A stretch of DNA of 64,000 nt, taken from positions 18,745 to 82,744 of the IMG/VR virus record IMGVR_UViG_3300028840_002702. One strand, given 5' to 3'. A program made the translations under genes and the position numbers. The DNA comes from a virus. Below the pieces are notes generated by a model, which searched no databases, was not told where the DNA came from, and was given only the letters and a program-made list of their open reading frames with translations. Positions 7,951 through 36,431 of the stretch are shown here, one piece after another (the stretch's first letter is position 1; each line of letters starts with the position of its first letter).

Positions 7951-7978
7951 TTTACATTGAAAAAAATTAGATTATAAT
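7951..7978 (+). promoter_or_regulatory. sigma70-like promoter
   Basis: TTTACA-N16-TATAAT upstream of GAGG RBS and ATG 7995. Confidence 0.6.
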
Positions 7979-7994
7979 AATCAAAGAGGTTAAT

Positions 7995-8813: not shown

Positions 8814-8814
8814 T

Positions 8815-9399
8815 ATGCATGGACATATTTTAATACTCGAAAATAAAGATACTATGAAAGACAATATTGTTGGTGGTATTTTGGTAGAAATTGGATCTGA
8901 TAGAGCATCTGGATCTACTAAAGCATTAGCTCAAATGGCTAAAGAATTTGATATGGATTTCTATACTGTTGATCCAGACGAAGGTGCGTATGAACGTTCA
9001 ACAAATATTCTTAAAAATATTGATGAAGATTTTAAAGCTGTACAAGATCTTGGTGAAAATTTCTTAGATAAATTTGATGGTGAAATTAATTTGATTTATA
9101 TGGATGCGTTTGATAATGTATTAGAAAATTGGCCACATAAACAAGCAACAATTGATACTTATAAGAAACGTGGTGTTGATCTTAATAATGAAAATTCTTG
9201 GAAAATGCATCTAGAGGCATGTCAAAATGCGATTGATAAAATTCCAGTTGGATGCTATATTTGTTTTGATGATACAGTTCAACGTGGCAATGAATGGGAA
9301 GGCAAAGGTAAATTAGCAATTCCATTCTTATTAAAAAATGGTTTTGATATTATTGATAATGACTATAATAATTGTCTAATACTTCAGAAGGAAAAATAA
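8815..9399 (+). CDS. Putative class I methyltransferase
   Basis: LVEIGS..GST, YTVD, LIYMDAFD, ICFDD..GKG. Confidence 0.7.
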   Translation: MHGHILILENKDTMKDNIVGGILVEIGSDRASGSTKALAQMAKEFDMDFYTVDPDEGAYERSTNILKNIDEDFKAVQDLGENFLDKFDGEINLIYMDAFDNVLENWPHKQATIDTYKKRGVDLNNENSWKMHLEACQNAIDKIPVGCYICFDDTVQRGNEWEGKGKLAIPFLLKNGFDIIDNDYNNCLILQKEK

Positions 9400-10061
9400 T
9401 GGCCCATAAAATTTTTATTCCAATTAAGGCGGAATCGCAAAGAGTACCTGGAAAAAATTTCAGAGATTTTCATGGTAAACCTTTATGGAAACATACATTA
9501 GATAAATTAGTAGATTATGATGTATACGTAGATACAGATTCTGGTGTTTTAGTAAGAGAACTTGAAGAAACATACGAAAATGTAACTGTAATTCCAAGAC
9601 GTCAAATGCATATAGGAAATGATGTTCCTGTTAATTGGTTGCTTGGTTATTTTGCAAATGAATGTCATGAAGACGATATCGTAGCACAAGTTCACGTAAC
9701 ATCTCCATTCTTAAAAGCTGAAACGCTTGATAAAATATTTAAAATGTTTGAAGGTGGTGGAGTTGATTCAGTAGCAACTGTTGATGTTATTCAAGCAAGA
9801 TGTTGGCGAACAGAAGCACCGAAAAGATTTATTCCAATTAACCATGATCCAGAGATTCTTGAACAAACACAAGATATTAATCCTGTTTATGTTGAGAATT
9901 CTTTAGTTTATGCGTTTCATGTTAGTCATTTTTTGAATACGCGAAATAGATTTAGTGGAGCTTATAAGCTCTTTTATGAAACACAATTTCCTGAAAGTTT
10001 AGATATTGATACAGAAGCAGATTGGGATTTGTGTGTTAAAATGGGAGAAATTTACAAATGA
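9399..10061 (+). CDS. neuA: Acylneuraminate (CMP-ulosonic acid) cytidylyltransferase, NeuA-like
   Basis: IPIKAESQRVPGKN..GKPL, VDTDS, HVTSPFL, SLDIDTEADW. Confidence 0.85.
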   Translation: MAHKIFIPIKAESQRVPGKNFRDFHGKPLWKHTLDKLVDYDVYVDTDSGVLVRELEETYENVTVIPRRQMHIGNDVPVNWLLGYFANECHEDDIVAQVHVTSPFLKAETLDKIFKMFEGGGVDSVATVDVIQARCWRTEAPKRFIPINHDPEILEQTQDINPVYVENSLVYAFHVSHFLNTRNRFSGAYKLFYETQFPESLDIDTEADWDLCVKMGEIYK

Positions 10062-12193: not shown

Positions 12194-12194
12194 T

Positions 12195-12941
12195 ATGCCA
12201 ATACGTTCCGAAAATTATAATGCTCGTCAAGATATCAACTTATGGCAACAAATTCCATCTACGGTAGTAACTGAAATATATACACAATTTACTAGAGTAA
12301 ATGGAATCGTATTTGATTTAGAACATGGTTGTTTTAACGATGAAACTTTATATTCGTGTATTCAAGTTGCATGTCTTGGTAAAAAACGTCCAATAGTTAG
12401 ACTTCCTTATTTAGATAAAGGTAGATTAAGAATGTGTTTAGATGCTGGTGTTGGTGGTGTAATTCTATCAACAGTTGAAACTAAAAAACAAGCACAAAAA
12501 TTTCTTGATGAATGTCTTTATTCTAGAAAACGAGGTCAGGGACTTGTTCGTCAAAATATGTGGAATGATGCTATGATAGCAGATGGTAGAAATTATATTG
12601 ACAATCATTTACAAATTATTCCACAGATCGAAACTAAGAAAGGTGTAGAAAATATTGACAAAATTTATGATAAGCGATTTACTTATTATATGGTTGGCCC
12701 TTATGATCTATCCGCAAGTTATGGATGTGCTGGTAATTTTGAAGCTCCAGAATTTCAAAATGCAATGTCTAAATTGGGACAAAAATTAGGTGAGGATGGT
12801 AAATTAGCTTTCCATCTTGTTAAAGATATAACTAAATCAAAAGTATATGCTAAGGCTGATTGTGGAATGCTAGCACTTGGCATGGATACAATTTTTTTAA
12901 ATGAAGGAATGGAACAATGTATAAAGATAGTATCGCGGTAA
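12195..12941 (+). CDS. HpcH/HpaI family pyruvate aldolase
   Basis: DLEHG, LDAGVGGV, QIETKKGVENID, VGPYDLSAS. Confidence 0.88.
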   Translation: MPIRSENYNARQDINLWQQIPSTVVTEIYTQFTRVNGIVFDLEHGCFNDETLYSCIQVACLGKKRPIVRLPYLDKGRLRMCLDAGVGGVILSTVETKKQAQKFLDECLYSRKRGQGLVRQNMWNDAMIADGRNYIDNHLQIIPQIETKKGVENIDKIYDKRFTYYMVGPYDLSASYGCAGNFEAPEFQNAMSKLGQKLGEDGKLAFHLVKDITKSKVYAKADCGMLALGMDTIFLNEGMEQCIKIVSR

Positions 12942-13831
12942 CATCAAAAACATTATCAAATCAAGAAGGATTTGTTAAATGGCTTAAAAGACATTTTAAA
13001 GAAGTTAAATTAAATCAAAGTGATAAATTACGTGATGAAAAACTTATAGAGTTTTTATCTGATGTAGATTATGTTGTACTTGGTACTGAACCATTCCATA
13101 AAGATATTATCAAAAATACTAAAAATTTAAAGGCGGTCTTTAAATATGGAGTTGGTATTGATAACATCGATTTCTTTGTTGCTGGTAAAAATAATCTTCC
13201 TATTTATTATAAGAAAGGTACAAATAGTGATGCTGTTACTGAAATTGCTTTAAGTTATATTATTCAATTATTGAGAAATCAACATATTAGTTTTGCCGCT
13301 GCCCGAAATGGTTGTTGGGATAAACAAAAGGGTAAAGAACTATCTGAATCAATTATTGGAATTATCGGTTTTGGTAATATTGGTCAATGTCTAAATACTA
13401 AACTTACTAGTCTTTTATGTTATGATATCTTATGGCATGATAAAAACAATCATAAAAATTCAATTTGTAACAAAGATTTAGAATTTGTTTTAAGTAACGC
13501 TGATGTTATTTCAATTCATATTGATAATGAAGATAGAATGAATACTAATTTCTTTGACGATGAAAAATTAAGTCTTCTTAAAGATGGTGCATATATTGTC
13601 AATACAGCACGTGGTTCTATAATGGATTATGATGCGCTTGAAAAACATCTTCCAAGACTTGGAGGAGTTGCATTAGACGTTTATCCTTATGAACCTAATA
13701 TTCCTGAATTTTTATTGGATTCTGACAAAGTTATTTTATCATGTCATATTTGCGGAAGTTCAGAACAAGGTTTGAAGAATGGTGAAGAGTTTATTAAAGA
13801 AAGTATTAAAACTCATATGGAGAAAAAATAA
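12917..13831 (+). CDS. D-2-hydroxyacid (phosphoglycerate-type) dehydrogenase
   Basis: YGVGIDNID, GIIGFGNIG, VNTARG, ALDVYPYEP, SCHICG. Confidence 0.9.
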   Translation: MYKDSIAVTSKTLSNQEGFVKWLKRHFKEVKLNQSDKLRDEKLIEFLSDVDYVVLGTEPFHKDIIKNTKNLKAVFKYGVGIDNIDFFVAGKNNLPIYYKKGTNSDAVTEIALSYIIQLLRNQHISFAAARNGCWDKQKGKELSESIIGIIGFGNIGQCLNTKLTSLLCYDILWHDKNNHKNSICNKDLEFVLSNADVISIHIDNEDRMNTNFFDDEKLSLLKDGAYIVNTARGSIMDYDALEKHLPRLGGVALDVYPYEPNIPEFLLDSDKVILSCHICGSSEQGLKNGEEFIKESIKTHMEKK

Positions 13832-14106
13832 TGAAGTGTTATAAATATACTGCAATGGATGCTCAAGGAAAAGAGAAAAGTGGAAATATAGATGCTGAGA
13901 ATGAAAATGATGCTAATGCTAAATTGAAAGAAATCGGTCTTTTTCCTACAAGTATTTCTAAAATAAAAACACCTAAGCAACCATCTGAAGAAGATAAAAA
14001 ATCTACTATAGAACAAATTTTTGACAATTCCCTTATCAGAGAACCTGAAAAAATCAAAATTAAACTTTTCGGGTTAATTACAGTACTAACAATAGAGAAA
14101 AACTAA
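13831..14106 (+). CDS. Stand-alone PilC/GspF N-terminal-domain-like small protein
   Basis: YKYTAMDAQGKEKSGNIDAENENDANAKLKEIGLFPTSI matches the typical first ~45 residues of type II secretion F/PilC proteins; no membrane body follows. Confidence 0.65.
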   Translation: MKCYKYTAMDAQGKEKSGNIDAENENDANAKLKEIGLFPTSISKIKTPKQPSEEDKKSTIEQIFDNSLIREPEKIKIKLFGLITVLTIEKN

Positions 14107-14108
14107 AT

Positions 14109-14381
14109 ATGGAATGGATTAAAGAAGACGTAGAAAAAATATCTGAGATGTTTGATATTACCAAAGAAGAAGTTATGGATTTAGAATGTTTTAGTCTAGA
14201 CCTTACAGATGATGAAATGGAACAACTAACAGAAGATATTCGCGATCTTGAATATGATGTTGAAGAAGGTAAAGGAACGTGCAAATTATGTTTTGATAAT
14301 CCATCTTCATTTCTTACCGCAACAGAAGCTTATGATGAATTCTATGGTTATGAACCATCTGATATTTCATTTGACGAATAA
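14109..14381 (+). CDS. Small acidic hypothetical protein
   Basis: 90 aa, strongly D/E rich, one CxxC. Confidence 0.6.
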   Translation: MEWIKEDVEKISEMFDITKEEVMDLECFSLDLTDDEMEQLTEDIRDLEYDVEEGKGTCKLCFDNPSSFLTATEAYDEFYGYEPSDISFDE

Positions 14382-14464
14382 AAATATTAAAAAGTTTTGT
14401 GAAGAGTTTATTTTTACGAGATTTGGTTTATCTATAAACAATTAAAATATTTTTAGGAGTCTTT

Positions 14465-15652
14465 ATGCTTTCACAATATAATGTTATAACACACCCCGCT
14501 GATAACGGAGGTTGTGGACATTACCGAATGAAATTTCCAGCTTGGGCAGCACAATCTTTGCGTAAAGATATTAGCATAGTTGAATCACCCAAGCTAATTC
14601 ATATCCCAGGATTTTATCAAGACGTTAGAATGGTACGCATTCAGCGCCAATTAGCAGATTATTCATTTAAATTTGTACTTGAGTTTCTAAAGCCATTATC
14701 CGAAAAAATTGGATTTTGGCTTTCTTATGAAATTGATGATGTTGTTGGACGTCATGATATTCCACGCTATAATTCCGGTTGGCAAACATTTCAGAATGAT
14801 AAACTCATGATGAATATGAAATATATTTTGCAACTCTGCGATGTAGTTACTGTTACAACACCGGAACTTGGTAATTATTATCATAGAAAATTTGGTGTTG
14901 ATAAAAATAATATCATAGTAATTCCAAACTATCTTCCAAGATGGTGGATTGGTGAAAGTTATGATTTGGAAAAAATCAAAGCTAAAATTCAATCTGAACA
15001 TAAACCTAGAATTGGATTTATTAGTTCATCTACTCATTTTGATCTATTTAATAGAAATGATGGTGTTGATGATTTTACACATATCGTAGATTTTATTAGA
15101 GATACTGTTGATAAATATCGGTGGGTATTTATCGGTGGGGTTCCACAACAACTAAAAGATTTAGTTGAAGATAAAAAGATTGAATTTAATCCCGGTTTTG
15201 ATATTTTGAATTATACGCGAATTGTTAATAGTATGAAGTTTGACTTAATGGTTGCTCCTCTTCAAGATAATGTTTTTAATAGATGTAAATCTAATATCAA
15301 ATTTATTGAAATGGCCGCACTTGGTATTCCTTGTATTGTTCAAGATTTAACTCCATACAAAAAATATACTGATCTTCGCTTTACTGATGCAAATGATCTT
15401 CAAGATAAGATTGATTTTGTATTATCTAATAAAGAAAGATATCTTGACCTCGTTAAAAATAATCGTGACATCATTGATAATGGTGATTCTAACGCACCAA
15501 AAGGATGGTGGCTCGAAAATAATATGGATGTTTGGTTCCAACAATTTTGTGTTAATCAACGTTCATTACGTTTTGATTTAAGAGAAATTAATTTCGAAGA
15601 AATAACTCCGGAAAATAAAAATAACGCCGGTGAAATAACGTTTGAGGTTTAA
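14465..15652 (+). CDS. GT4-like (GT-B) glycosyltransferase
   Basis: GGCGHYR, YEIDD, VTVTT, APLQDNVFNRCKSNIKFIE..LGIPCI; AGGAG RBS. Confidence 0.85.
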   Translation: MLSQYNVITHPADNGGCGHYRMKFPAWAAQSLRKDISIVESPKLIHIPGFYQDVRMVRIQRQLADYSFKFVLEFLKPLSEKIGFWLSYEIDDVVGRHDIPRYNSGWQTFQNDKLMMNMKYILQLCDVVTVTTPELGNYYHRKFGVDKNNIIVIPNYLPRWWIGESYDLEKIKAKIQSEHKPRIGFISSSTHFDLFNRNDGVDDFTHIVDFIRDTVDKYRWVFIGGVPQQLKDLVEDKKIEFNPGFDILNYTRIVNSMKFDLMVAPLQDNVFNRCKSNIKFIEMAALGIPCIVQDLTPYKKYTDLRFTDANDLQDKIDFVLSNKERYLDLVKNNRDIIDNGDSNAPKGWWLENNMDVWFQQFCVNQRSLRFDLREINFEEITPENKNNAGEITFEV

Positions 15653-20919: not shown

Positions 20920-21243
20920 ATGGCTAAAAAACAAAAAGAATCAACCAAATTTTCTTTGGCATTAAAAGAACTCGGTTACGAATCAATCGGTGAATTTGTT
21001 GAACTAGTAGGTGGCTTTGCTGCTATGATTAGTGAAGGTAAAGATGCAAGTATTATGGCAAAACCACTTGCTGAACACTGTGGTGTTTTGATTGAACGTA
21101 TGGGACACCTTGATGCTGTTAAGAAAAAGAACCGCGATCTCAAAGAAATTGATGAACAAATTGAGAAAGCAAAAGAAGATAAACCAGCAATTACAATGGA
21201 TTTGGATCCTTCATTGATTGCAAACCTTAAAGGTCAAAAATAA
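20920..21243 (+). CDS. Hypothetical protein
   Basis: GAGG RBS; TTTACT-N16-TATATA promoter at 20865-20892. Confidence 0.7.
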   Translation: MAKKQKESTKFSLALKELGYESIGEFVELVGGFAAMISEGKDASIMAKPLAEHCGVLIERMGHLDAVKKKNRDLKEIDEQIEKAKEDKPAITMDLDPSLIANLKGQK

Positions 21244-21734
21244 TGATTAAATTTTCAAAAGTACGTGACGTAAAATCACCAACCCGAGCTAATACTACTG
21301 ACGCAGGTATTGATTGGTTTATTCCTAATGATCTTACTAACGAAGTCTTTGAAGAAAAGAATAAAGTTAGTAATGCTTATGTTGGTTTAGGCGGTATTGT
21401 AATTACACCACATGGTAGAGCGTGTATTCCAGCTGGAATACATATTAATATCGATGAAGGTTGGGCGCTTATTGCTGCTAATAAATCAGGCGTAGCTACT
21501 AAGAAAGGTCTTGTATTTGGTGCACAAGTTGTTGATAGTGATTATCAAGGTGAAGTTCACATTAGCGTAATTAATACAACTGATAAAGAAGTAATTCTTG
21601 AATTTGGTGCTAAAATTATTCAATTCCTTTATATGCCAGTTGGATTGGATATGCCAGAAGAAGTTCCATTTGAAGATCTTTATACTGAAGAAACTAATCG
21701 TGGTACTGGTGGATTTGGATCATCTGGAGTATAA
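21243..21734 (+). CDS. dut: Trimeric dUTPase
   Basis: DAGID, NKSG, VDSDYQGE, RGTGGFGSSG. Confidence 0.95.
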   Translation: MIKFSKVRDVKSPTRANTTDAGIDWFIPNDLTNEVFEEKNKVSNAYVGLGGIVITPHGRACIPAGIHINIDEGWALIAANKSGVATKKGLVFGAQVVDSDYQGEVHISVINTTDKEVILEFGAKIIQFLYMPVGLDMPEEVPFEDLYTEETNRGTGGFGSSGV

Positions 21735-21737
21735 TAA

Positions 21738-22037
21738 ATGTCTATAACCAAACAAACTGTGTATATATGCGATAATTGTAATGACAAGAAAACATATAAT
21801 GAAGATACGTTTGGTGGAGCTCGCCCCTATGTGTACAATTTAGAATGTACTGGGGGTGGAGTTCTAAGAGATTCTAAACAGACTAAATACAATTTTTGTT
21901 CTCTTCAATGTGTGGGTGAGCATGTGCATAAACAAATTGAATTAGAATCTGTAAATAAAAACCAAGACACACGTGTACAGGATGCTTTAGATGCCCTCAA
22001 AGGAAATTATAGATCAGACGTTTCTACGGATAGCTAG
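21738..22037 (+). CDS. Small Zn-finger-like hypothetical protein
   Basis: CDNC...FCSLQC. Confidence 0.6.
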   Translation: MSITKQTVYICDNCNDKKTYNEDTFGGARPYVYNLECTGGGVLRDSKQTKYNFCSLQCVGEHVHKQIELESVNKNQDTRVQDALDALKGNYRSDVSTDS

Positions 22038-22479
22038 AGAAATAGCTAACTTTTCAAATTGTGTTTCATTTAATGTTGGTTGTGTTATCGTAAAAGATGG
22101 TCGCATAATTTCAATGGGTTACAATGGTACACCAAAGGGATTTCAAAATTGTTCAGAACGATTTCCAAATTTAATTGAACGCCCTCGTAAAACATGGTCA
22201 ACTGATGAACGTGACGAACATCATGCTTTTTCAGAAGCTCATGAAATTCACGCAGAAGAAAATGCGATCAATTTTGCTGCTCGACATGGTTTAAGTATTG
22301 AAGGTTCAGATGTCTATTGTACTTTACAACCTTGTAATCGTTGTCTTAAAATGTTATGTGCACCAGGAATTAAGCGTATTATTTATAGTGAAGAATATGA
22401 TAAATGTAATCATTGTTCGGAAGTAAGGGAAATGGTAATAAATAGTGGAATTAAATTAGAATGGATCCCCTTAAAGTAA
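21991..22479 (+). CDS. dCMP deaminase
   Basis: GYNGTP, HAEENA, PCNRC. Confidence 0.92.
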   Translation: MPSKEIIDQTFLRIAREIANFSNCVSFNVGCVIVKDGRIISMGYNGTPKGFQNCSERFPNLIERPRKTWSTDERDEHHAFSEAHEIHAEENAINFAARHGLSIEGSDVYCTLQPCNRCLKMLCAPGIKRIIYSEEYDKCNHCSEVREMVINSGIKLEWIPLK

Positions 22480-25791: not shown

Positions 25792-25905
25792 TTTCTATCA
25801 AATTTATAAATCAAAGTATATTTCTTAGTATACTTTGATTTTTTCTTGTTTATATATCTATATCTGAAACGAAAGACGGTAATACCGCAACACGAGGAGA
25901 AATTA

Positions 25906-28575
25906 ATGTACAGAAATGTAGTGTACCGTGTCGGTCCTGACACTGGTTGGAAAGGTGAAATTACGCTTTACACCTGGGATGAAGATGGAATTCCCGAAGA
26001 AAGAGTTTACCCCCACAAATCAAGACTTTATTACGAACGCCCAAATGGACATTATAAATCCATGTATGGCACTCTACTCGAAAAGAAAGAATTTGATTCT
26101 ATTATTGAAAGATCTCGATGGATAAAAAATAATCCTGGTATTAAAATCTTTGAATGTTTTCATCCCGAACGTGAATTTCTAATTGATTACTTTGATGGTG
26201 AACAAGAAAAAGATGATTTTGCAAAACACGAACTTCGTACACATATTATCGATATTGAAATAGCGGTTGAAGAAGAATTCCCGCTACCAAGTAATCCAAT
26301 TTATCCAATTAATGTACTTACTGTGTATGACAATTATCTTGATGAATATCATACATGGATCTTTAAACATAAAAAATGGTGTAAGCCAGATACAGACTTT
26401 ACAATAATCCCAGATGATATTGATAAAAGCGTTGAAATTCCTACAAACGTTGAATTACATGTATTTGATGATGAAATGGAAATGTATATGGACTTTCTTC
26501 GTTGGTTCAAACATAATAGACCAGATGTTTTAACTGGTTGGAATGTAGAAGACTTTGATATTCCATATCTTGTTGAACGTATTGAAGTATTTCTTGGTGA
26601 AACTGTTGAACTATTATCTCCTGTCGGTACTATTAAGAAAGAAATGCGCGAACAACGTGGGTTTGATTCTCGTAAACTCTATTCTTATAAAGTTAAAGGT
26701 ATTTCTACGTTAGACTATTTACCAATTTATCGTTTTAAATTCGGCGCTAATCTTCCATCATATAAATTAGAAAATGTAGCTATGGAAGAACTTGGATATG
26801 GTAAAATTAGTTATGAAGGATCATTTAAGCAGTTCTATCGTAATCATTTTGTAAAATTTGTATATTACAATATTATTGACGTAAAAGTAGTTAAGGATTT
26901 AGATACAAAACTTAAATATATAGCTCTTGCTCGTAACATTTGTAATATTGGTTTAAGTGAATATGAATCAATCTTTAGATCTTCACCAGCTATTATCGGT
27001 GCTCTTTGTCTTCAAGCACATCAAATGGACGTAAAAATTATGACAAACGCTGGTGTTGAACCAGTTGAAGCTAGTTTTACAGGTGCGTTTGTGTTTGATG
27101 TTAAACGTGGTATTTATCATGGTGGAACAAGTTCATTAGACTTAAATTCGCTATATCCAAACTTGATGATTAACTTAAATATTAGTCCTGAGACTAAAAT
27201 AGGTAAGATAATTTATCGAGATGATGATGAAATTATGATTAAATTTCAAAATGGATCTATCAAAAAGATGCATCCATCGAAATTAGAAGAACTTCGTGGT
27301 AAAGTTACAATATCTCCAAATGGTGTCTTATACATTAATCCGAAGAAAAAGGTTGGATTAATGCCAGCATTCCTTGAACGTCTTTATAAGAAACGTAAAG
27401 AAGTTCAAGCTCGAGATAAAGTTGTACAAGATAAAATCGAGAAAATTAAAGCCAAACTTAAAGAACTTTCTAAAGAAAAAGTTGATATTGTTAAACCAAA
27501 ATTAGCTGAGCTTGAAACATTGCATCAAAATCTAAATAATAGACAACATGCTTATAAAATCTTTCTTAATTCTATTTATGGTCAGCTTGGTAACCGTTAC
27601 TTCCCACTATTTGATCTTGATAATGCTGAAGCTGTTACACTCTCAGGACAAAAAGTAATTAAAGAATCTGCACGTTTTCTACAAACATATTTTCAAAAGA
27701 AATACAAGCTTTCAGATTATGAAGCACCGCTTGCTGGTGATACTGACTCATTATATTTTGATTGTTCACCAACAACACAAGCAGTACTTGGCCATCTTCC
27801 TGAAAAATGGGATGACGAAATGATTCAACGAGTTTGTGACGAGCTTGATAAAGATCTTGTGAAAAAGATTAATGCCAATTGTGGTAGAATTACTGAACAA
27901 GAGTTTATGTCTCCGTTAAAAAATATTGTATTTAAACGTGAAACATTCTGTACTGAAGCAATGTTCCTTGCTAAGAAACGTAATATTCTACATGTTCGTA
28001 ACGATGAAGGTATTCCAGTAGATAAATGGAAATGTACTGGTGTTGATATTAAACGTAATGAACTTCCTGGAAAAATCAAAGATTCATTAAAGCATATTAT
28101 GTTTACTTCTCTTGTTGATAGATGGACAGCTGGTGATTATGCTGGTGAAATCAAAGAAGTTTGGCATAAATTTAATGAATTGACAGCTGATGATATTGCT
28201 TTTAATAAAGGTTATACAACTGAAAAGAAATCTAATGGATTTTTGAAAGCTGAAAAAGGATCTCTAATACATGCTAGAGGTGCAATCTATCATAATCATA
28301 TTATCGAAAATTTGAAACTTGAAGATCAATACGATAAAATTCAAGTTGGAGATAAAATTAGATTTGCACGAGTATTAAAAACTAATGTGTATGGTATAGA
28401 TGTTATCGCTTGGAAAGACGAATGGCCACCAGAATTTGATGAAATTTTTACTATTGATTATCAAATGATGTTTGAAAAAGTTGTTCTCGCTCCTCTTAAA
28501 AGGATTATTGAAATCAACAATTGGTCAAGAATGCACCCAGCAAACGAAGTAGAAACAGATATAATGAATTTGTAA
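25906..28575 (+). CDS. Family B DNA polymerase (T4 gp43-like)
   Basis: DIE, GWNVEDFDIPY, YNIID, DLNSLYP, KIFLNSIYG, GDTDS, KKR; GAGGAG RBS; promoter TATACT-N16-TATATA at 25829-25856. Confidence 0.96.
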   Translation: MYRNVVYRVGPDTGWKGEITLYTWDEDGIPEERVYPHKSRLYYERPNGHYKSMYGTLLEKKEFDSIIERSRWIKNNPGIKIFECFHPEREFLIDYFDGEQEKDDFAKHELRTHIIDIEIAVEEEFPLPSNPIYPINVLTVYDNYLDEYHTWIFKHKKWCKPDTDFTIIPDDIDKSVEIPTNVELHVFDDEMEMYMDFLRWFKHNRPDVLTGWNVEDFDIPYLVERIEVFLGETVELLSPVGTIKKEMREQRGFDSRKLYSYKVKGISTLDYLPIYRFKFGANLPSYKLENVAMEELGYGKISYEGSFKQFYRNHFVKFVYYNIIDVKVVKDLDTKLKYIALARNICNIGLSEYESIFRSSPAIIGALCLQAHQMDVKIMTNAGVEPVEASFTGAFVFDVKRGIYHGGTSSLDLNSLYPNLMINLNISPETKIGKIIYRDDDEIMIKFQNGSIKKMHPSKLEELRGKVTISPNGVLYINPKKKVGLMPAFLERLYKKRKEVQARDKVVQDKIEKIKAKLKELSKEKVDIVKPKLAELETLHQNLNNRQHAYKIFLNSIYGQLGNRYFPLFDLDNAEAVTLSGQKVIKESARFLQTYFQKKYKLSDYEAPLAGDTDSLYFDCSPTTQAVLGHLPEKWDDEMIQRVCDELDKDLVKKINANCGRITEQEFMSPLKNIVFKRETFCTEAMFLAKKRNILHVRNDEGIPVDKWKCTGVDIKRNELPGKIKDSLKHIMFTSLVDRWTAGDYAGEIKEVWHKFNELTADDIAFNKGYTTEKKSNGFLKAEKGSLIHARGAIYHNHIIENLKLEDQYDKIQVGDKIRFARVLKTNVYGIDVIAWKDEWPPEFDEIFTIDYQMMFEKVVLAPLKRIIEINNWSRMHPANEVETDIMNL

Positions 28576-28625: not shown

Positions 28626-28958
28626 ATGAATATAGGTGAATTGAAGGAGATGATCTGGTCAATTATCGACGTACATATTGGAGGGATTCCAGTTACGGAG
28701 AAAATTTACATAGACATCAGTAACAACTATTTGCAAGAAGATGAACTAGGATTCTGTGAAACAACTGATGATTTTAAATCAGCATTCATAACATTTAATG
28801 AATTAGAACTTAATTGTATGGATGATTCAGAACAAATTGACGTTATATGTCATGAAATAGCTCATTTAATTTGTGAAGATAAAGAAGAATTTGAAGAACA
28901 TGATCAACTATGGCAGAATGTTGTAGTTGCACTTGGTGGAATGCCAAATTATTATTGA
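28626..28958 (+). CDS. SprT-like zinc metalloprotease domain protein
   Basis: HEIAH...HDQLWQ...LGG; promoter TATACT-N16-TATATT at 28577-28604. Confidence 0.75.
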   Translation: MNIGELKEMIWSIIDVHIGGIPVTEKIYIDISNNYLQEDELGFCETTDDFKSAFITFNELELNCMDDSEQIDVICHEIAHLICEDKEEFEEHDQLWQNVVVALGGMPNYY

Positions 28959-28968
28959 GAGTTAAATA

Positions 28969-30171
28969 ATGAAAATCTGTTGTATTGAATATAATTTTGA
29001 TGCATTTAATGGTGGTGCAGCCACCTTTACCCGAGAGACAGTCAAACTATTTAATAAGTATTCTGATACGTTTGATGTAGATATTGTACAGTACGATCCA
29101 ATTGAAAAGAAGTGTGAAGTACTTGAAGTTAAACATATTGATGACGTTGATATAGAATCTTACGATATTGTAATGCATGGATGTGTAAACTGTGTTAATC
29201 GTGAGAATGACGAAATTCTTGATCTGTTAGTTAGCTTGAAGAATCCTCGTACTGTATTCTTTGAACATGACCGTTATCCTGTACAACGTGTATTTTGGCA
29301 TCAAAAGAAAAAAGCACGTACTGCAATGGCATGTGATTATATTATTACATGTCATCCTTTTATGTATAAAGAATTTGTTGAAGATAAAAGTAGAATCTTA
29401 GAATATAATACTTGGTTGAACTATAGAGATGTAACTGATGTTACTGAAGTTAAACCTTTTAATGAGCGCGAAATTGATGTTCTTTATCAAGCTCGTATTG
29501 CTCCCAAGAAAGGTTCTGATGGATATCTTGAATTTGCAACAACAACTAAAGAACTTGGTCTTTATGAAAATTATATGATGTATGGATTTACTGGAATGCC
29601 AGCAGAAATTTCTTGTAAAAAACATCCATCAGTATTTACTCGAATTCATAAAGATCCAAATAAACTGGTTTATAATACTCCAAAATCATTTATTGAACTT
29701 AATAAATTTGTTACCACAAATGAAGGTGTCTTAGATAATTTCAATAATGCTAAAATTACTTGGGCAGCTTATAAACTTGGTAAACAAAGTAAAGATGTAA
29801 ATGTTAAAATGCATAAAGGATGGGAAGGTGCTCAGCTCGAAGCTTTGGCTGCTGGAACTATTCTTATCTGTAATGGTTTACAACGTGATCTTGAAATCTG
29901 CGGTAAACGTCTCGAAGAATATGGTTGTTTTTTCTTTATCGACGATAACCAAATGGAGCCGCTAATTGAAGAAGTTAAGAATGCTAATCTTGAAGAAATG
30001 TATCAGAAGTTAATGGAATTTAGAAAGATTCTATTTAATGATAAGAATTTCGTTCAAGGTTGGGCTGATGTTTTAATTCCGATTTATAAAGGTGAAAAGA
30101 AAGAAACTTTTATAATTGAAGCAAGCACTTTTAAGGAATATAAAGAAAATAACAGTACAAGAACTAATTAA
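28969..30171 (+). CDS. GT-B glycosyltransferase resembling T4 DNA alpha-glucosyltransferase
   Basis: 400 aa; MKICCI..GGAATFTRE, VFFEHD, YQARIAPKKG, EGAQLEALAAG; lies next to the DNA polymerase. Confidence 0.65.
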   Translation: MKICCIEYNFDAFNGGAATFTRETVKLFNKYSDTFDVDIVQYDPIEKKCEVLEVKHIDDVDIESYDIVMHGCVNCVNRENDEILDLLVSLKNPRTVFFEHDRYPVQRVFWHQKKKARTAMACDYIITCHPFMYKEFVEDKSRILEYNTWLNYRDVTDVTEVKPFNEREIDVLYQARIAPKKGSDGYLEFATTTKELGLYENYMMYGFTGMPAEISCKKHPSVFTRIHKDPNKLVYNTPKSFIELNKFVTTNEGVLDNFNNAKITWAAYKLGKQSKDVNVKMHKGWEGAQLEALAAGTILICNGLQRDLEICGKRLEEYGCFFFIDDNQMEPLIEEVKNANLEEMYQKLMEFRKILFNDKNFVQGWADVLIPIYKGEKKETFIIEASTFKEYKENNSTRTN

Positions 30172-30193: not shown

Positions 30194-31480
30194 ATGAAAA
30201 AACATAAAGCTATCGCATATGCGATTTTTACCGGATCAAATTATATCGGCTGTATGAATACGGGTCGTTTTGAACAAGACACAATTCTTGAAAATTCTGA
30301 TGCATGTTTAGAAGGAAATTCGATGCATCTCGCTGGGTGTACTGCAAATTTAAAAATTGTCAAACCTAGTGAATGGAAAGAAGAAAATTATTTAGAAAAT
30401 CATCCAAGTTGTGGTTGTGATTATTTCTATGCTAATCCAAATTGTAGTGGATTAAGTCGAATTAATCGTAATGCTAATGCAGATCATTACAGAAATTTTT
30501 CTCTAAATGAATCTGTTGATATTATTGACAAGCTTGGTCCAAAAACTTTCTTTATTGAAAATGCTCCAACACTAAGTAGTCAAACTGGCTGGCCTATTCT
30601 TACTCGAATGGCAGAAGTACTTGGCGAAAATTACACATTCAATGTAACTCGTGATTATGGAAAATTTCACAATGTTCCAATGGGAAGACATCGTACTTTG
30701 GTAACTGGTTATCGCCGTGATGTTTTTGATAATAAAACTTTCAAACTTCCACATAAAGTTGTAACAACTAAAAAACTACTTGAAGAAGTTGGTTCAGATT
30801 TGATGCCACAAGATGTAGGTGTATTTAATTACGAACCATTTACTCATGATATGATTCAAATTGTTGAACAAAATTTCGAGATCTTTCAAGAAATTATTGA
30901 GAAGTATCAAAAGAAATTTACTATACTTTCTATTATTCTTTCAACTCATCCTCGTAATATCAATAAAGCGTTGGAAGAATCTTATGACTGGGATACAATC
31001 ATAAGAAAAACTAAGATGGAAAATGACAAGCATAAAGATAGTATTATTCGAGACATTGATCGTAAGATTGTGAAACTCGCTGGAGGCGGGGGTGTCTGGG
31101 ATAAGAGTCCAACACTGATTCATAAAGATGTTCAAATGGGAATTAGTCTGACTGCTATGGCAATTATGTATAATTACGAAGAACGTCGTTTGTTTAATAT
31201 CCGCGAATACGCAAACATGATGGGATATCCAAATGATTTCGTATTCAAACCTGGTGTTACAATTGGACATATTGCACAGGGTGTTCCAGCGAATTTTGCA
31301 CAATATGTTCATGAACATATCGCTAACGTTCTTGATAATCCTCAAGGTAATGTTGAATCAGTTGATGCTGATGCGGTTGTTCAATTGAATAATGCTAAAG
31401 AAGCAAGAACTGCAGCGGTTGATCTTGAAAGATTTAAAATACTCGGAAATATTAACTCAGCATTTGTAAAAGGAGAATAA
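30194..31480 (+). CDS. C5-cytosine DNA methyltransferase-like protein
   Basis: PNCSGLS (motif IV), IENAP (VI), VPMGRHR (VIII), RLFNIREYANMMGYP (IX), IAQGVP (X); motif I is degenerate (IFTGS). Confidence 0.8.
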   Translation: MKKHKAIAYAIFTGSNYIGCMNTGRFEQDTILENSDACLEGNSMHLAGCTANLKIVKPSEWKEENYLENHPSCGCDYFYANPNCSGLSRINRNANADHYRNFSLNESVDIIDKLGPKTFFIENAPTLSSQTGWPILTRMAEVLGENYTFNVTRDYGKFHNVPMGRHRTLVTGYRRDVFDNKTFKLPHKVVTTKKLLEEVGSDLMPQDVGVFNYEPFTHDMIQIVEQNFEIFQEIIEKYQKKFTILSIILSTHPRNINKALEESYDWDTIIRKTKMENDKHKDSIIRDIDRKIVKLAGGGGVWDKSPTLIHKDVQMGISLTAMAIMYNYEERRLFNIREYANMMGYPNDFVFKPGVTIGHIAQGVPANFAQYVHEHIANVLDNPQGNVESVDADAVVQLNNAKEARTAAVDLERFKILGNINSAFVKGE

Positions 31481-31483
31481 CAG

Positions 31484-32773
31484 TTGAAAAAGATCTGTGT
31501 ATTTAAAGTTGGTAAAAGTCCAAAGTTTTTCTGCAATGTAGATGTCAATGATCATCAATCGCGTATGATGGGTGACTGGGAGTTAGTCGAACTTATTCGA
31601 CTACTCTCAAATGAACATCCTGATGATCAAATTTATATTGTAGGACGAGCAAGACCTCAAAAGGGTTTTGATTTTAATGAACAATTCCCAAATGGTAATG
31701 TAAAGTATCTTCGTTTTGATAAAGATAAAGAAGATACTTCATTTGAGGCTGCACAATTCTATACTTCACATCCAGAGCTTGAAACAGTTGATGAATTCCA
31801 TTATCTTATGGGTCCACATGCCAGATATAATGGAAATATGAAACTCTGGGATGACGAAAAGGATAAACCAGTAAAAAGTATGATGTGTTTTGAAAATTAT
31901 GTAGCTCCTCTACATGCTTTAATGAACGCACATCCAAAAGCTGCCCATTTTCCATACATTTCTGACCGTCGATATGTATTTATTGGCCGAGATTTGGTTA
32001 CACAGCCCAAAATTATGCTTGCACAGAACGTCAAACCGTTCGAATTGGAGAATATTACCTTCAATAAAGCTGATGAAACGTCAAAACAGGGTTCTCAAGG
32101 GCCTAAAAAGTACACAATGGTACCATTTAGGTTCGATACATTGGTACTTTATGGTAAAAATAGGGACGAAATGACCCAAAATATGGTAAATTGGGAGTCC
32201 AGACCGTACGAAATATCAGTTGTAGCCAATCAAGTGGCCCCAAATATGGAAGGAAGTAGGTTCCAGGAGATCAAAAAGAACGTTCTGGACGTATATCCGG
32301 CCGAAAAAGTGGGTATAATTGGTCAGTGGAAGATAAAAGAAGTGGTAGAAGACCATATAGATTACGTTCATGAGGGTAGAACTGATGGTTGGGGTACTGA
32401 TTATTACGAAGAAATGAAGAAATTTAAGTATTCTATCATATTCTTTAACTGGAGAGACTGTTCTACTAAGACATCTAGAGCTCAAATTAAGGATAATTGG
32501 ATAACACCTAAGGTTTATGAAACAATGCTGCTTGGATGTGGTACTTTTATCCATGTAGAAGACCCTGAAATGCGTAAATGGTTCATTCCATACCTTGGAG
32601 ATAAACTACTTTTCAGCACACCTGAAGAGTTGAAGCATAAAATTGATACTTTTACTAAACAAGATATCATTGATGCTCAATTAGAAGTACTAAAACAGTC
32701 ATATTTTGATGGTTCTTACTTCAAAAAATTTATTGATAACGTAAGAAGTAAAATTTATGGCAATAGTAAATAA
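31484..32773 (+). CDS. GT-B protein resembling T4 DNA beta-glucosyltransferase
   Basis: SDRR resembles BGT TDIR; DNWITPKVYETM...STPEEL resembles BGT DNFITLRVWETM...NNRAEL; TTG start with AGGAG RBS. Confidence 0.6.
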   Translation: MKKICVFKVGKSPKFFCNVDVNDHQSRMMGDWELVELIRLLSNEHPDDQIYIVGRARPQKGFDFNEQFPNGNVKYLRFDKDKEDTSFEAAQFYTSHPELETVDEFHYLMGPHARYNGNMKLWDDEKDKPVKSMMCFENYVAPLHALMNAHPKAAHFPYISDRRYVFIGRDLVTQPKIMLAQNVKPFELENITFNKADETSKQGSQGPKKYTMVPFRFDTLVLYGKNRDEMTQNMVNWESRPYEISVVANQVAPNMEGSRFQEIKKNVLDVYPAEKVGIIGQWKIKEVVEDHIDYVHEGRTDGWGTDYYEEMKKFKYSIIFFNWRDCSTKTSRAQIKDNWITPKVYETMLLGCGTFIHVEDPEMRKWFIPYLGDKLLFSTPEELKHKIDTFTKQDIIDAQLEVLKQSYFDGSYFKKFIDNVRSKIYGNSK

Positions 32774-33339: not shown

Positions 33340-33580
33340 ACCAGAACATCATAAACGTTATAGAGTAGCATGGGAGGCTCATAGAGATCCCGATACACCA
33401 AAATCTTGCTTAAAAGATATTGAAAATGAAATGGATAATGCTCAGAATGATTTTAAGTGGGATGAATTTCAAGAATTCAAACAAACACTTCCAGGTTATA
33501 TAGAACATTGGGAAAAAATGAAAAATGATCTTGATAAAAAATTGCTTGATATTATTGACAAAGAGATAAAAGATAAATAA
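33323..33580 (+). CDS. Hypothetical protein
   Basis: Coupled ORF. Confidence 0.55.
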   Translation: MTIQSEPEHHKRYRVAWEAHRDPDTPKSCLKDIENEMDNAQNDFKWDEFQEFKQTLPGYIEHWEKMKNDLDKKLLDIIDKEIKDK

Positions 33581-34197
33581 TGAAAAATACTATTGAACTT
33601 TTAGGAATTTATGGATCAGATTTAACACATGCACAATCGGCATGGACTTCAACTGAACGTGAATTAGATCAAAAGAAATTAAATCGTGTACCACAACTAT
33701 TAAAATATCTAGCTGAAAATAAACATGAAACTCCATTTGAGAAAAGTACATTACATTTCTTGGTAACATCAGAAATTGCTTCTCATATTCACATGCTTAA
33801 ACATCGAATTGGTGTTTCTATTAATGCTGAATCTGCTCGTTATAAAGAATTAAATGATGACAAATACTATATTCCTGACGATTGGCCAGAATTTCTACGT
33901 AAAGATTATATCAATTATATGGAAAAAGCATTTGAAAAATATCATGAAGTTTTAGCTCATTTAGAAATAATTGGATTTGATAGAAAACGTGCTAAAGAAT
34001 CTGCTAGATTTTATCTTCCATACGCTAATCAAATCAAATGTGATATAACATTTAACTTTCGATCATTTGTTCACTTTCAACGTCTTAGAAATGATGAACA
34101 TGCTCAATTAGAAATTAGAGAAATTGCGCAACAGATGCTTAAGTTAGTTAAAGATCATGGTGATTTTTTCCATACAATTAATGCGTTTAACTTGTAG
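33580..34197 (+). CDS. thyX: Flavin-dependent thymidylate synthase
   Basis: HETPFE, KHR-x8-SARY, ESARFYLP, NFRSF, HAQLEIR. Confidence 0.93.
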   Translation: MKNTIELLGIYGSDLTHAQSAWTSTERELDQKKLNRVPQLLKYLAENKHETPFEKSTLHFLVTSEIASHIHMLKHRIGVSINAESARYKELNDDKYYIPDDWPEFLRKDYINYMEKAFEKYHEVLAHLEIIGFDRKRAKESARFYLPYANQIKCDITFNFRSFVHFQRLRNDEHAQLEIREIAQQMLKLVKDHGDFFHTINAFNL

Positions 34198-34227: not shown

Positions 34228-34845
34228 ATGAGTGTAAAAGTACAATTTTGGTCTTATAATGATCCTGATTTACATGTAGCATGGTTTCAAAATCTATCTG
34301 ATTTAGATTATGTAGAAATTAAAGAAGGTGACATTTTATCTGAAGGTTGTGATATTTTAGTAAGTCCAGCAAATAGTTTTGGTTTTATGGATGGCGGCAT
34401 AGATCTTCATTATAGAAATTTTTTTGGAATGGAGTTAGAAACCAGAGTTAAAAATGAAATTATTAATTATCGGGATGGTGAACTTCCTGTAGGAGATGCA
34501 CTAACAGTACCAACAATGAATGAAAAATTTCAATGGTTAATGGTACTTCCAACTATGAGAACACCAACTATTCTAAGACCTTCTGATCCAAATATTTATC
34601 TCGCGGCAAAAAGATTAGCATGGAGTATAAAAGGTTGGATGAATGAAGGTCGAGATAAGATTATTGCAGTCCCTGGACTTGGAACCGGTGTTGGTAAAAT
34701 GCCTCCAGATATTTGTGCTAAACATATTAGACTTGCTTTTGATAGGGTTATGAGTCCTAAAACTTGGTCTCCAACATGTTTTAGTGATGCTAAACTTCCT
34801 GGTGATACTCGTATGAGTATGCACGATTTCTTTCCTTCATTTTAA
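34228..34845 (+). CDS. Macro-domain (ADP-ribose processing) protein
   Basis: GDI, VSPANSFGFMDGGID, PTMR, PGLGTGVG. Confidence 0.9.
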   Translation: MSVKVQFWSYNDPDLHVAWFQNLSDLDYVEIKEGDILSEGCDILVSPANSFGFMDGGIDLHYRNFFGMELETRVKNEIINYRDGELPVGDALTVPTMNEKFQWLMVLPTMRTPTILRPSDPNIYLAAKRLAWSIKGWMNEGRDKIIAVPGLGTGVGKMPPDICAKHIRLAFDRVMSPKTWSPTCFSDAKLPGDTRMSMHDFFPSF

Positions 34846-34916: not shown

Positions 34917-35156
34917 ATGGATAAGAAAATTGTAAAAATTCCTTTACGTGATCGTTTTCGAAATGGAGGAAATCAAAGAACTAGTATTCTTGGTTATCTT
35001 GAAACAGACGAAATTGAATTATCAACTTTAGCATGGTTATTAGCCAATAAAATTGAATTGAAATTGGCTGGGGAAGTAAGACTTGATCAACATGGTCACT
35101 ATGAATTAACAGAAATTAGATTTGAAGCAATTCCACATGAGCGTAATAAAAAGTAG
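34917..35156 (+). CDS. Hypothetical protein
   Basis: 79 aa with AAGGA RBS. Confidence 0.55.
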   Translation: MDKKIVKIPLRDRFRNGGNQRTSILGYLETDEIELSTLAWLLANKIELKLAGEVRLDQHGHYELTEIRFEAIPHERNKK

Positions 35157-35700
35157 TATAATAGTAGAAGGTTTAGATTGTACAGGAAAAAGTACAATAA
35201 TCAAACATATTCAAAATGAAATTCCTCGATTAAAATATTATCATTTTGAATTCCCACAAGGTAATACTGATATTGAAAAGTATGCATTTCAATGGGGTCA
35301 GTTTGATATGATGTTTAAATTTATTGAATTGACAAATGGTAGTACACAGTTTATATTTGATAGAGCACATATCGGTGAATATATTTGGGGTCCAAAATAT
35401 CGAAAAATGTTTCCTGATTATATGCCAATGATTGAAGATAAGTATAAAAATCTTCCAATAGTTTTACTTCATGTTCATGCTCACCATTCAAAAATTTATC
35501 AACGTTTTGAACAACGTGAAGATGAGAAAACACCTGGTATTATGTATATTAAAGAATATCTAAATAAGTTTAGACTATTCTGTGAACGGAGTCCATTTTA
35601 TACAATATCACTTAATACGACCGATTTGGAAACACCAGATCAAATTAGCGCTGCAGTTAAAGATGTAGTTAGACAAATAGACGAATTCGAAAATAAATGA
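35137..35700 (+). CDS. Thymidylate-kinase-like dNMP kinase
   Basis: VEGLDCTGKST P-loop; FDRAHIGEYIWG. Confidence 0.85.
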   Translation: MSVIKSSIIVEGLDCTGKSTIIKHIQNEIPRLKYYHFEFPQGNTDIEKYAFQWGQFDMMFKFIELTNGSTQFIFDRAHIGEYIWGPKYRKMFPDYMPMIEDKYKNLPIVLLHVHAHHSKIYQRFEQREDEKTPGIMYIKEYLNKFRLFCERSPFYTISLNTTDLETPDQISAAVKDVVRQIDEFENK

Positions 35701-36431
35701 AAATTTTCAAAGACATACATAAAGCATATCGTGGCGTATTAATTGATGTTCGCGATAATTACGATCACATTTGTGCTCCACGTGAACAAGAAATTAGAGA
35801 AATCAGAGACTACTCATTTCGTATTGATAATCCAGTAGCTGAAGCTATTATTACAGCTGATGAAAAACGAAATGAAGTTATTGAAGATTATACTATGAAA
35901 GAATGGAAATTGTACGATTCATGTAGTAACCAAGTTCAGGATTTTGCAAAAGCATCCAAATTTTGGAATAAGCTACAAAATCCTGATGGTACAGTGAACT
36001 CAGCATATGGTTATTTGATTTGGAAGAAAAAATCTTTTGGAACCATAGCTTACGGTGATGGTCTGCATAGAACTCCATGGGAATGGGCTAAAGAATCTTT
36101 GATAAGAGATAAAGATTCTCGTCAGGCATTTCTTAAATTCTCTTTGCCAGAACACCAATGGTTTGGGAATAAAGATCAGACTTGTACGATGCATGCTAAT
36201 TTCCTCATTCGTGATGATAAGTTACATTTAACTGTTGTTATGCGTAGTAATGATGTTAAACTTGGCTTAGCTTACGATCTTCCATGGTTTGTATCTCTCT
36301 TGGATAGAATGCAAGATGATCTTATTGAGACTTATCCAGAATTGAAAATTGGAACTTATACTCATATTGCTCATAGTATGCATATGTACGAAAGAGATTT
36401 AGAAGATATTAGTAAGATGATCGGGGTTTAA
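35697..36431 (+). CDS. Thymidylate synthase homologue, dCMP hydroxymethylase type
   Basis: NSAYG, DSRQA, catalytic Cys in DQTCT, MRSNDVKLGLAYD (Asp at the dCMP-specificity position as in T4 gp42), SMHMYE. Confidence 0.82.
   Translation: MKIFKDIHKAYRGVLIDVRDNYDHICAPREQEIREIRDYSFRIDNPVAEAIITADEKRNEVIEDYTMKEWKLYDSCSNQVQDFAKASKFWNKLQNPDGTVNSAYGYLIWKKKSFGTIAYGDGLHRTPWEWAKESLIRDKDSRQAFLKFSLPEHQWFGNKDQTCTMHANFLIRDDKLHLTVVMRSNDVKLGLAYDLPWFVSLLDRMQDDLIETYPELKIGTYTHIAHSMHMYERDLEDISKMIGV

Follow-up and report, generated by a model that had tools for sequence, protein, structure and literature searches.

Background

The C5-methyltransferases (C5-MTases) and the homologues of thymidylate synthase (TS) are two protein folds that attack C6 of a pyrimidine and thereby functionalise C5. 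When both are kept for the same base, the question is what remains for the methylase fold once C5 has been filled. The question is raised by a gene in the IMG/VR virus record IMGVR_UViG_3300028840_002702, of which positions 18,745 to 82,744 were analyzed (64,000 nucleotides, hereafter the window). The gene encodes a C5-MTase-fold protein, here called the look-alike, and lies among genes for 5-hydroxymethylcytosine (5hmC, hmC) synthesis and DNA glycosylation. Published work offers a precedent for repurposing of the fold in phages: CmoX belongs to a 5-carboxymethylcytosine pathway with non-methyl chemistry and is defined by an SPPC motif, Arg350 at the position of M.HhaI Asn304, and a co-encoded CmoA (PMC12783734).

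In the accessible part of a jumbo-phage survey, DNA cytosine methyltransferases (DCMs) and the synthesis of hydroxymethyl nucleotides are listed separately, with no link of the former to hmC (PMC7824862), and in that of a preprint on phage glycosyltransferases, methyltransferases occur only among generic neighbours (bioRxiv 10.1101/2023.12.21.572611). The word 'methyltransferase' does not occur in PMC8670742. No literature linking a C5-MTase-fold family to dCMP hydroxymethylase was found in a search limited to main texts (supplementary files may hold neighbourhood tables that bear on the link).

The uncultured T4-like phage most likely builds DNA with sugar-coated hydroxymethylcytosine. As judged from its sequence and surroundings, the look-alike would best be explained as an active accessory enzyme of a pre-replicative module for 5hmC and glycosylation, not as a stray restriction-modification methylase.

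Fold and conserved motifs of the look-alike

The open reading frame (ORF) starts with ATG and has a GAGGA ribosome-binding site 5 nt upstream. The protein matched Pfam PF00145 (DNA_methylase) above the gathering score, over profile positions 61-321 only. Its match to NCBIfam TIGR00675 (Dcm) began at profile position 65 and scored 51.6 bits, below the cut-off of 100.65 bits. An AlphaFold2 model based on a 24-sequence alignment (mean pLDDT 91.4, pTM 0.90) was compared with the Protein Data Bank (PDB) by Foldseek; the top match was M.HhaI (E 2e-13, TMt 0.70), and the other closest structures were plant MET1, DNMT1, M.HaeIII, DNMT2, and CmoX (8yf3). The C5-MTase fold, which a sequence-only reading of the window had proposed, is predicted to be intact, and with confidence. 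Fused forms were not found in a search of proteins of 750-2140 aa, which is weak evidence, and a promoter consensus scan was uninformative (58 sites against 59.5 expected).

Conservation was counted in an alignment of the best 120 of 230 relatives. In motif IV, C84, S85, L87, and S88 were each found in 119 of the 120 sequences; the residue before Cys84 was Pro in 115, and Asn83 stands in its place (P-N-C) in the subclade of the window protein. E122 and N123 of motif VI (IENAP, residues 121-125) occurred in all 120 and A124 and P125 in 119, and H159, M163, R165, and R167 of motif VIII (with MGRHRT at residues 163-168) were present throughout (120/120). Motif X (IAQGVP, residues 360-365) had Q362, G363, V364, and P365 in 119 sequences each. 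Motif I was slightly more variable (F12, 115/120; G14 and S15, 117/120 each), and Glu33 of motif II, the cofactor-ribose binder in CmoX and M.HhaI, was kept in 118. In the target-recognition region, K304 was found in 118 sequences and S318 in all. Because of the counts for C84, E122, N123, R165, and R167, the active site appears to be under strong selection.

When the family profile was compared with solved enzymes, the canonical counterparts read PCQ.[FW]S, ENV, DYG..Q.R.R, and GN(A/S)V, and AQGVP aligned with GNAVP of M.HaeIII and with GNSV of M.HhaI and 3g7u. The look-alike has neither the canonical motif I (FxGxGG) nor the canonical motif X, GN(A/S)V; all positions of the family signature (IFxGS/PCS/ENAP/H..M.R.R/AQGVP) are present in the window protein except P83. 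The motif X Asn (M.HhaI Asn304) contacts the transferred group directly (PMC12783734), and across the family this position and its neighbours are changed and then near-invariant. Because they are almost invariant across the 120 relatives, the odd motifs are best read as a conserved family signature and not as decay. The sequence-only reading had described PxC, EN, and RxR as intact and IFTGS and AQGVP as atypical; residue by residue this holds, with atypical to be taken in the sense of non-canonical and not of degenerate. DNMT3-type enzymes, too, depart from the canonical motifs I, IV, and X and are nonetheless ordinary S-adenosylmethionine (SAM) methyltransferases. Since, in addition, four of the five look-alikes from complete genomes matched PF00145 over nearly its whole length (profile 6-323, up to 107 bits), the sequence by itself cannot prove a new cofactor.

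Distribution and linkage to hydroxymethylase genes

The 230 relatives, obtained by a word-indexed protein search, were about 380-450 aa long, and many were encoded on contigs of 100-500 kb. The nearest relatives of the window protein were 72%, 55%, 42%, 40%, and 37% identical to it and the rest 31-36%; its subclade is divergent: it has P-N-C and T13, carries a longer insert ahead of motif IX, and ends in a different C-terminal tail. Bacillus phage G gp301 ('DNA cytosine methyltransferase') was 32% identical over 98% of the query. Among 185,579 species genomes, only three look-alike loci were found, all on contigs of 132-136 kb from metagenome-assembled genomes (MAGs) that carry a hydroxymethylase gene, and the family is essentially virus-only.

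Neighbourhoods were surveyed at 26 loci: 22 from IMG/VR, the three MAG loci, and the window. Loci are denoted L002 and so on where they need to be told apart; near-duplicate pairs were L004/L012, L009/L010, L018/L020, and L039/L040. A hydroxymethylase-type TS gene was present on the same record at 23 of the 26 loci, including all five complete genomes (99-100% estimated), and the three loci without it were fragments estimated to be 3%, 5%, and 37% complete. The TS gene lay within 10 kb of the look-alike in the window and at 14 of the 22 IMG/VR loci, elsewhere on the record at five more, and on the contig at all three MAG loci. The sequence-only reading was to be given up if the enzyme proved to be an ordinary motif-specific 5mC methyltransferase with no neighbourhood link to hmC genes; the survey gave a strong link. 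In each of the five complete genomes, the look-alike was the sole PF00145 match.

Recognised DNA glycosyltransferases were located within 10 kb of the look-alike at 11 of the 26 loci. They resembled T4 alpha-glucosyltransferase (AGT) in L003, L006, L008, L014, L017, L022, and L038 and T4 beta-glucosyltransferase (BGT) in the window, L002, and, weakly, L013; in L011, a TET-associated glycosyltransferase (TAGT, PF20691) adjoins the look-alike. Gene ends overlapped in L017 (kinase-TS fusion, 7414-8727; AGT, 8728-10002; look-alike from 10001) and in L011 (TAGT, 8982-10013; look-alike from 10010). In phage G, the AGT-like gp306 ('alpha glucosyl transferase') is encoded about 2.6 kb from gp301, a second AGT-family ORF (L003:390-1796) about 8 kb, and a hydroxymethylase-type TS about 13 kb from it; the second TS of this phage is of the ordinary ThyA type. 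The replication modules differ between loci (T4-like PolB, PolA with DnaB, and jumbo phage G), so that common descent of entire genomes does not by itself explain the association.

The reverse survey started from the best 80 (tblastn against the window hydroxymethylase) of at least 590 IMG/VR relatives, which were found by an alignment-derived pattern. A C5-MTase-fold gene lay within 10 kb of the hydroxymethylase gene at seven of the 80 loci, a canonical one at none. One of the seven belonged to the main family (same contig as L005), and six (L064, L071, L074, L085, L096, and L105; 408-423 aa) formed a sister clade with roughly 20-25% identity to it. The sister clade has the motifs PLIGG, CPC[A/S]GLS, GENAP, HG.PQ.R.R, and [A/C]QNVP; ENAP, PC[S/A], xQxVP (Gln for Asn), and His for Tyr are common to both clades. 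At the sister-clade loci other than L085, whose sequence breaks off shortly after the hydroxymethylase gene, the sister gene directly follows a BGT-like gene with abutting or overlapping frames, the hydroxymethylase gene is 0.5-4 kb away, and the BGT-like proteins match that of the window with E 1e-62 to 7e-71. Five of the six BGT-like loci in this survey carried a look-alike. The look-alike is thus an accessory in a minority of hydroxymethylase modules and, when present, is tied to glycosyltransferase genes.

The hydroxymethylcytosine pathway

The TS homologue is encoded 4.2 kb downstream of the look-alike, and its best PDB matches were T4 dCMP hydroxymethylase (gp42) and the CMP hydroxymethylase MilA. 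It has Cys163, the motifs MRSND...G...D and KD-x-x-C, Asp at the position of ThyA Asn177, Asp at that of Asp169, and, three residues ahead of the Cys, an acidic one (position L143). The Asp at Asn177 stands for dCMP specificity, the acidic residue is a signature of hydroxymethyl and not methyl transfer, and D169N is diagnostic of 5-hydroxy-dCMP synthases (PMC13326640). The other carrier records that have a TS-like gene, 22 in number, all showed the hydroxymethylase pattern as well; D169N was absent from these and from the window, by which a 5-hydroxycytosine synthase was ruled out. On these residues, the window gene is classified as dCMP-hydroxymethylase type, and C5 should therefore be occupied in most cytosines of the phage, in support of the premise from which the sequence-only reading had started. 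The dTMP source is separate from this TS-fold enzyme and is ThyX.

No match to a gp56-type dCTPase was obtained in the 82.7-kb genome fragment (36% complete) to which the window belongs; among the five complete relatives, it was undetected in three and gave weak partial matches in two. Tet_JBP (PF12851) was matched neither in the genome fragment nor in the five complete relatives, a result of low power with a silent control. It agrees with the earlier remark that no TET/JBP oxidase is visible, and a route by C5-MTase, TET, and glycosyltransferase was set aside on it, weakly, since the control was silent. CmoA (TIGR00740) was found in none of the five complete relatives, with the control positive in 10 of the 14 genomes; this search did not extend to the genome of the window.

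Gene neighbourhood in the window

The genes stand in the order PolB, SprT-like, AGT-like, look-alike, BGT-like, small ORFs, ThyX, macro-domain, deoxynucleoside monophosphate (dNMP) kinase, and TS homologue (Table 1). The gaps on the two sides of the look-alike are 22 and 3 nt, and a terminator consensus scan gave no site in either; two terminator-like sites on the + strand (29326-29355 and 31650-31670) fall inside the glycosyltransferase ORFs.

The AGT-like ORF had no Pfam or PDB sequence match. In the ESM Atlas it fell among AGT clusters (PF11440; feature score 0.98, structure TM 0.76), and it was aligned by hhalign with seven AGT-like proteins of related loci (probability 53%, E 1.3e-4, 267 columns); BLASTP against the AGT of L017 was not significant (E 0.87). 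The model of the BGT-like protein matched T4 BGT with E 5.8e-7 and TMt 0.59, and a homologue was found in L002 (E 1e-10); BLASTP against T4 BGT gave a 12-residue match only (E 0.052). As direct BLASTP is weak, the glycosyltransferase assignments rest on fold and profile evidence, and it is at the level of the fold that the look-alike is, as had been proposed, wedged between two glycosyltransferases, AGT-like upstream and BGT-like downstream.

Table 1. Genes and motifs in and around the hydroxymethylcytosine module (positions in the window)
Feature	Position	Strand	Remarks
Trimeric dUTPase homologue	21243..21734	+	PF00692 E 9.4e-20; recurs near the look-alike with dCMP deaminase
dCMP deaminase homologue	21991..22479	+	Clusters with L002:5031-5453 (PF00383 E 3.2e-21)
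Family-B DNA polymerase, T4 gp43-like	25846..28575	+	Heads the row; PF00136 E 4.9e-29; PF03104 E 5.3e-21
SprT-like zinc metalloprotease ORF	28626..28958	+	Directly upstream of the AGT-like gene; PF10263 E 5.2e-7
AGT-like GT-B protein, candidate DNA alpha-glycosyltransferase	28969..30171	+	ESM Atlas, hhalign
C5-cytosine-methyltransferase-fold look-alike, phage G gp301-like family	30194..31480	+	428 aa; PF00145 E 2.5e-15
Motif I region AIFTGSNYIG, residues 10-19	30221..30250	+	Family IFxGS, not FxGxGG
Motif IV P82-N83-C84-S85-G-L-S, predicted catalytic Cys84	30419..30457	+	PCS against canonical PCQ
Motif VI FFIENAPTL	30548..30574	+	Glu122-Asn123 kept; Val of ENV replaced by Ala-Pro
Motif VIII HNVPMGRHRT	30668..30697	+	Both Arg kept; canonical Tyr replaced by His, Gln by Met
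Motif X IAQGVPANF	31271..31297	+	Gln362 at the position of M.HhaI Asn304 and CmoX Arg350
BGT-like GT-B glycosyltransferase	31484..32773	+	Model pLDDT 77.7; Foldseek top match T4 BGT 1j39
ThyX flavin-dependent thymidylate synthase	33580..34197	+	PF02511 E 2.2e-37
Macro-domain protein	34228..34845	+	Between ThyX and kinase; weak NCBIfam DarG similarity, E 1.6e-5
dNMP kinase, candidate for the T4 gp1 role	35122..35700	+	Overlaps hydroxymethylase start; PHROG 761 thymidylate kinase E 5.4e-19; weak PF02223
dCMP-hydroxymethylase-type TS homologue	35697..36431	+	PDB 1b49 E 1.1e-15; residue rules

Other observations were made at these loci. The dNMP kinase and the hydroxymethylase-type TS are fused (about 437-440 aa) in L011, L014, L017, L018/L020, and L038. 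DarG is a DNA ADP-ribosyl glycohydrolase antitoxin, and the macro-domain protein may act in counter-defence against the ADP-ribosylation of DNA by DarT-type enzymes. SprT/Spartan-type proteases clear DNA-protein crosslinks, and an enzyme with a covalent Cys-C6 adduct might need a safeguard of this type; five other loci, L004 (1178-1696), L012, L016, L019, and L021, have a second SprT-like family, with its gene about 8 kb upstream of that for the look-alike. A neighbour of 316-350 aa at eight loci (cluster of L004:3952-4995) has no Pfam match and is, by its consensus with a CHC2-type zinc finger and a Toprim-like acidic pattern, probably a DnaG-type primase and not a glycosyltransferase.

In L002, a 164-kb phage with terminal repeats and the closest complete relative, the interval between the look-alike and the kinase/hydroxymethylase genes (11298-15001) encodes HAD-like, BGT-like, PIG-L/BshB1-like de-N-acetylase, class-I methyltransferase, and WbqC-like proteins. 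The class-I methyltransferase resembles sugar O-methyltransferases and not CmoA, and the cluster suggests that an amino-sugar on DNA is deacetylated and then modified further. The nine C-terminal residues of the L002 look-alike (9995-11269) resemble the tail of its own polymerase (7350-9980; FE.S..D[LI]), which is consistent with a shared clamp-binding tail. The corresponding tails in the window are not alike, and a clamp-binding tail was not confirmed there; gp45-type clamp PF02916 gave no match in the 82.7-kb fragment, where the control matched nothing either.

Possible function of the look-alike

In the proposed mechanism, the look-alike would flip a cytosine-type base out of newly synthesised phage DNA, Cys84 would add to C6, and Glu122 and Arg165/Arg167 would hold the ring, roles that are assigned from conservation only. 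The substrate would be the minority of cytosines that enter DNA unmodified; with a one-carbon group put on C5, every cytosine would be C5-substituted and safe from cytosine-directed nucleases. Transfer of a one-carbon group to cytosines that escaped replacement is our tentative first choice, held with a little less than even confidence. Its simplest case, a methyl group from a nucleoside cofactor in the reshaped pocket, would leave plain 5-methylcytosine (5mC) on residual C, and this product taken alone is rather unlikely; another C5 group on residual C, possibly a hydroxymethyl that is then glycosylated by the neighbouring transferases, is improbable. Unmodified C is the sole substrate that fits the whole canonical mechanism, in which the final beta-elimination needs H5 (PMC12783734), and residual C is plausible because gp56-type dCTPase was undetected in three of the five complete relatives and weak in two.

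Other observations weigh against such a role. A task limited to mopping up would predict the family in phages without hmC, where it was not seen. Residues of the cofactor and transfer sites differ in a fixed way (motif I without its two Gly, PCS, ENAP, AQGV), and the presence of the same changes in the sister clade, which is also linked to BGT-like and hydroxymethylase genes, suggests an adaptation beyond plain SAM and C. An undetected gp56 is weak evidence for residual C, and the trimeric dUTPase and dCMP deaminase homologues could deplete dC nucleotides. There is also a wider proposal, for which the balance tips slightly to the negative: that the look-alike does not make 5mC, and that the gp301-like family and its sister clade form a virus-only superclade, rebuilt around C5 and the donor site and partnered by BGT-like or AGT-like glycosyltransferases, for an undescribed step of cytosine hypermodification. 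The proposal has two forms: chemistry on 5hmC, or the post-replicative attachment to residual cytosine of a group other than methyl, either of one carbon (e.g. hydroxymethyl) or larger.

In the first of these forms, the look-alike would act on 5hmC itself, in step with the glycosyltransferases: Cys84 would add to C6, and the hydroxymethyl would be exchanged (e.g. for methyl, with formaldehyde released), removed, or substituted, by which selected sites would be edited or an undescribed cytosine derivative made. Doubtful as this is, it fits how strictly the look-alike depends on the hmC pathway (23 of 26 loci and five of five complete genomes) and the conserved pairing of BGT-like and look-alike genes, whose frames abut or overlap, in two divergent clades (window, L002, L064, L071, L074, L096, and L105). 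The changed residues line C5 and the transferred group, which the residue at the M.HhaI Asn304 position contacts in CmoX (PMC12783734). Canonical M.MpeI, moreover, forms covalent complexes with 5hmC DNA, and its Cys-dependent methyl transfer was attributed to a loss of formaldehyde and subsequent remethylation (PMC11347137). The canonical mechanism, in contrast, needs H5, the PF00145 match of four of the five members from complete genomes covers nearly the whole profile, and DNMT3-type enzymes deviate likewise yet use SAM. No natural enzyme is known to act on 5hmC in such a way, and the benefit to the phage is unclear. The sequence-only reading had posed methylation of residual C against a repurposed enzyme; the link to hmC has since been added, and both stand, residual C at nearly even confidence and action on 5hmC as a clearly lesser possibility, with a variant that used carboxy-SAM finding no support.

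That variant corresponds to a CmoX-type C5-carboxymethyltransferase. Both the fold and the profile comparisons matched CmoX 8yf3, and the altered motif X Asn stands where CmoX has its cofactor-selecting residue (PMC12783734). The residue there is Gln362 (119/120) in place of Arg350, the motif IV is P-N-C-S or x-P-C-S in place of SPPC, CmoA was found in none of the five complete relatives under a control that worked, and the class-I methyltransferase of L002 looks like a sugar O-methyltransferase; on Gln362 and the CmoA result, carboxy-SAM was rejected, and we regard it as scarcely credible. The non-canonical motifs I and X, and the Asn that replaces the Pro of PC in the window's subclade, would also suit a helper or regulator that binds DNA or flips bases but is catalytically silent and no longer uses a cofactor. 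Such a protein is very improbable, given that the nucleophile, general acid, Arg pair, ribose-binding Glu, and pocket are near-invariant at 30-40% overall identity, which argues for a working site and an occupied pocket.

An ordinary orphan 5mC methyltransferase, motif-specific and directed against host restriction, would share synteny with the hmC genes and no functional tie. Phages often carry orphan methyltransferases, and the PF00145 match above the gathering score agrees with one, as do the DCMs that the accessible part of the jumbo-phage survey lists without an hmC link (PMC7824862). The co-occurrence, however, spans unrelated replication modules (PolB, PolA with DnaB, and phage G), and translational coupling to the genes for hmC and glycosyltransferases recurs from locus to locus; the target-recognition residues K304 and S318 are conserved, unlike those of enzymes with diverse specificity, and cellular genomes almost never contain the family. 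An orphan enzyme is accordingly given little weight.

If residual cytosines are the substrate, the look-alike would show how phages without a T4-type dCTPase reach full cytosine protection. If the enzyme is directed to hmC or does not use SAM, it would represent a new reaction for the C5-MTase fold, following the precedent set by CmoX in 2025, and could serve epigenomics as a tool for chemistry selective for 5hmC. The family is large (230 matches), and since it has a cultivable member, phage G gp301, the question is directly testable.

Comparison with known systems

The look-alike has the same two-domain fold as M.HhaI, M.HaeIII, and 3g7u and shares with them the Cys, the Glu of ENx, RxR, motif IX, and the motif II Glu. 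Compared with canonical Dcm enzymes, PCQ is replaced by PCS (PNC in the window), ENV by ENAP, Y..Q.R.R by H..M.R.R, and GN(A/S)V by AQGVP; motif I is IFxGS, the score is below the Dcm cut-off, and the family is virus-only and tied to hmC genes.

With CmoX, known with CmoA and CmoY from Synechococcus phage S-B43 (PMC12783734; 8yf3), the look-alike shares a phage C5-MTase fold in which the motif X Asn is replaced. It differs in having Gln362 and no SPPC, and its partners are a hydroxymethylase and glycosyltransferases, with no CmoA found in the five complete relatives and no amide ligase. In the pathway of C5-MTase, TET/5mYOX, and glycosyltransferase (PMC8256090; bioRxiv 10.1101/2023.12.21.572611), a C5-MTase-fold gene likewise adjoins DNA glycosyltransferases, whereas the window pathway is without a detected TET and would obtain hmC at the nucleotide level from the TS homologue.

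The T4 glucosyl-5hmC system is alike in its hydroxymethylase-type TS, its dNMP kinase, and its AGT-like and BGT-like genes by a family-B polymerase. T4 has the gp56 dCTPase, of which none was detected in the window's 82.7-kb fragment, and its module has no C5-MTase-fold gene, with Dam encoded nearby. The gene order of the window is that of T4 genes 43, 42, and beta-gt. Phage G gp301 belongs to the same family as the look-alike, of which the window protein represents a more divergent subclade.

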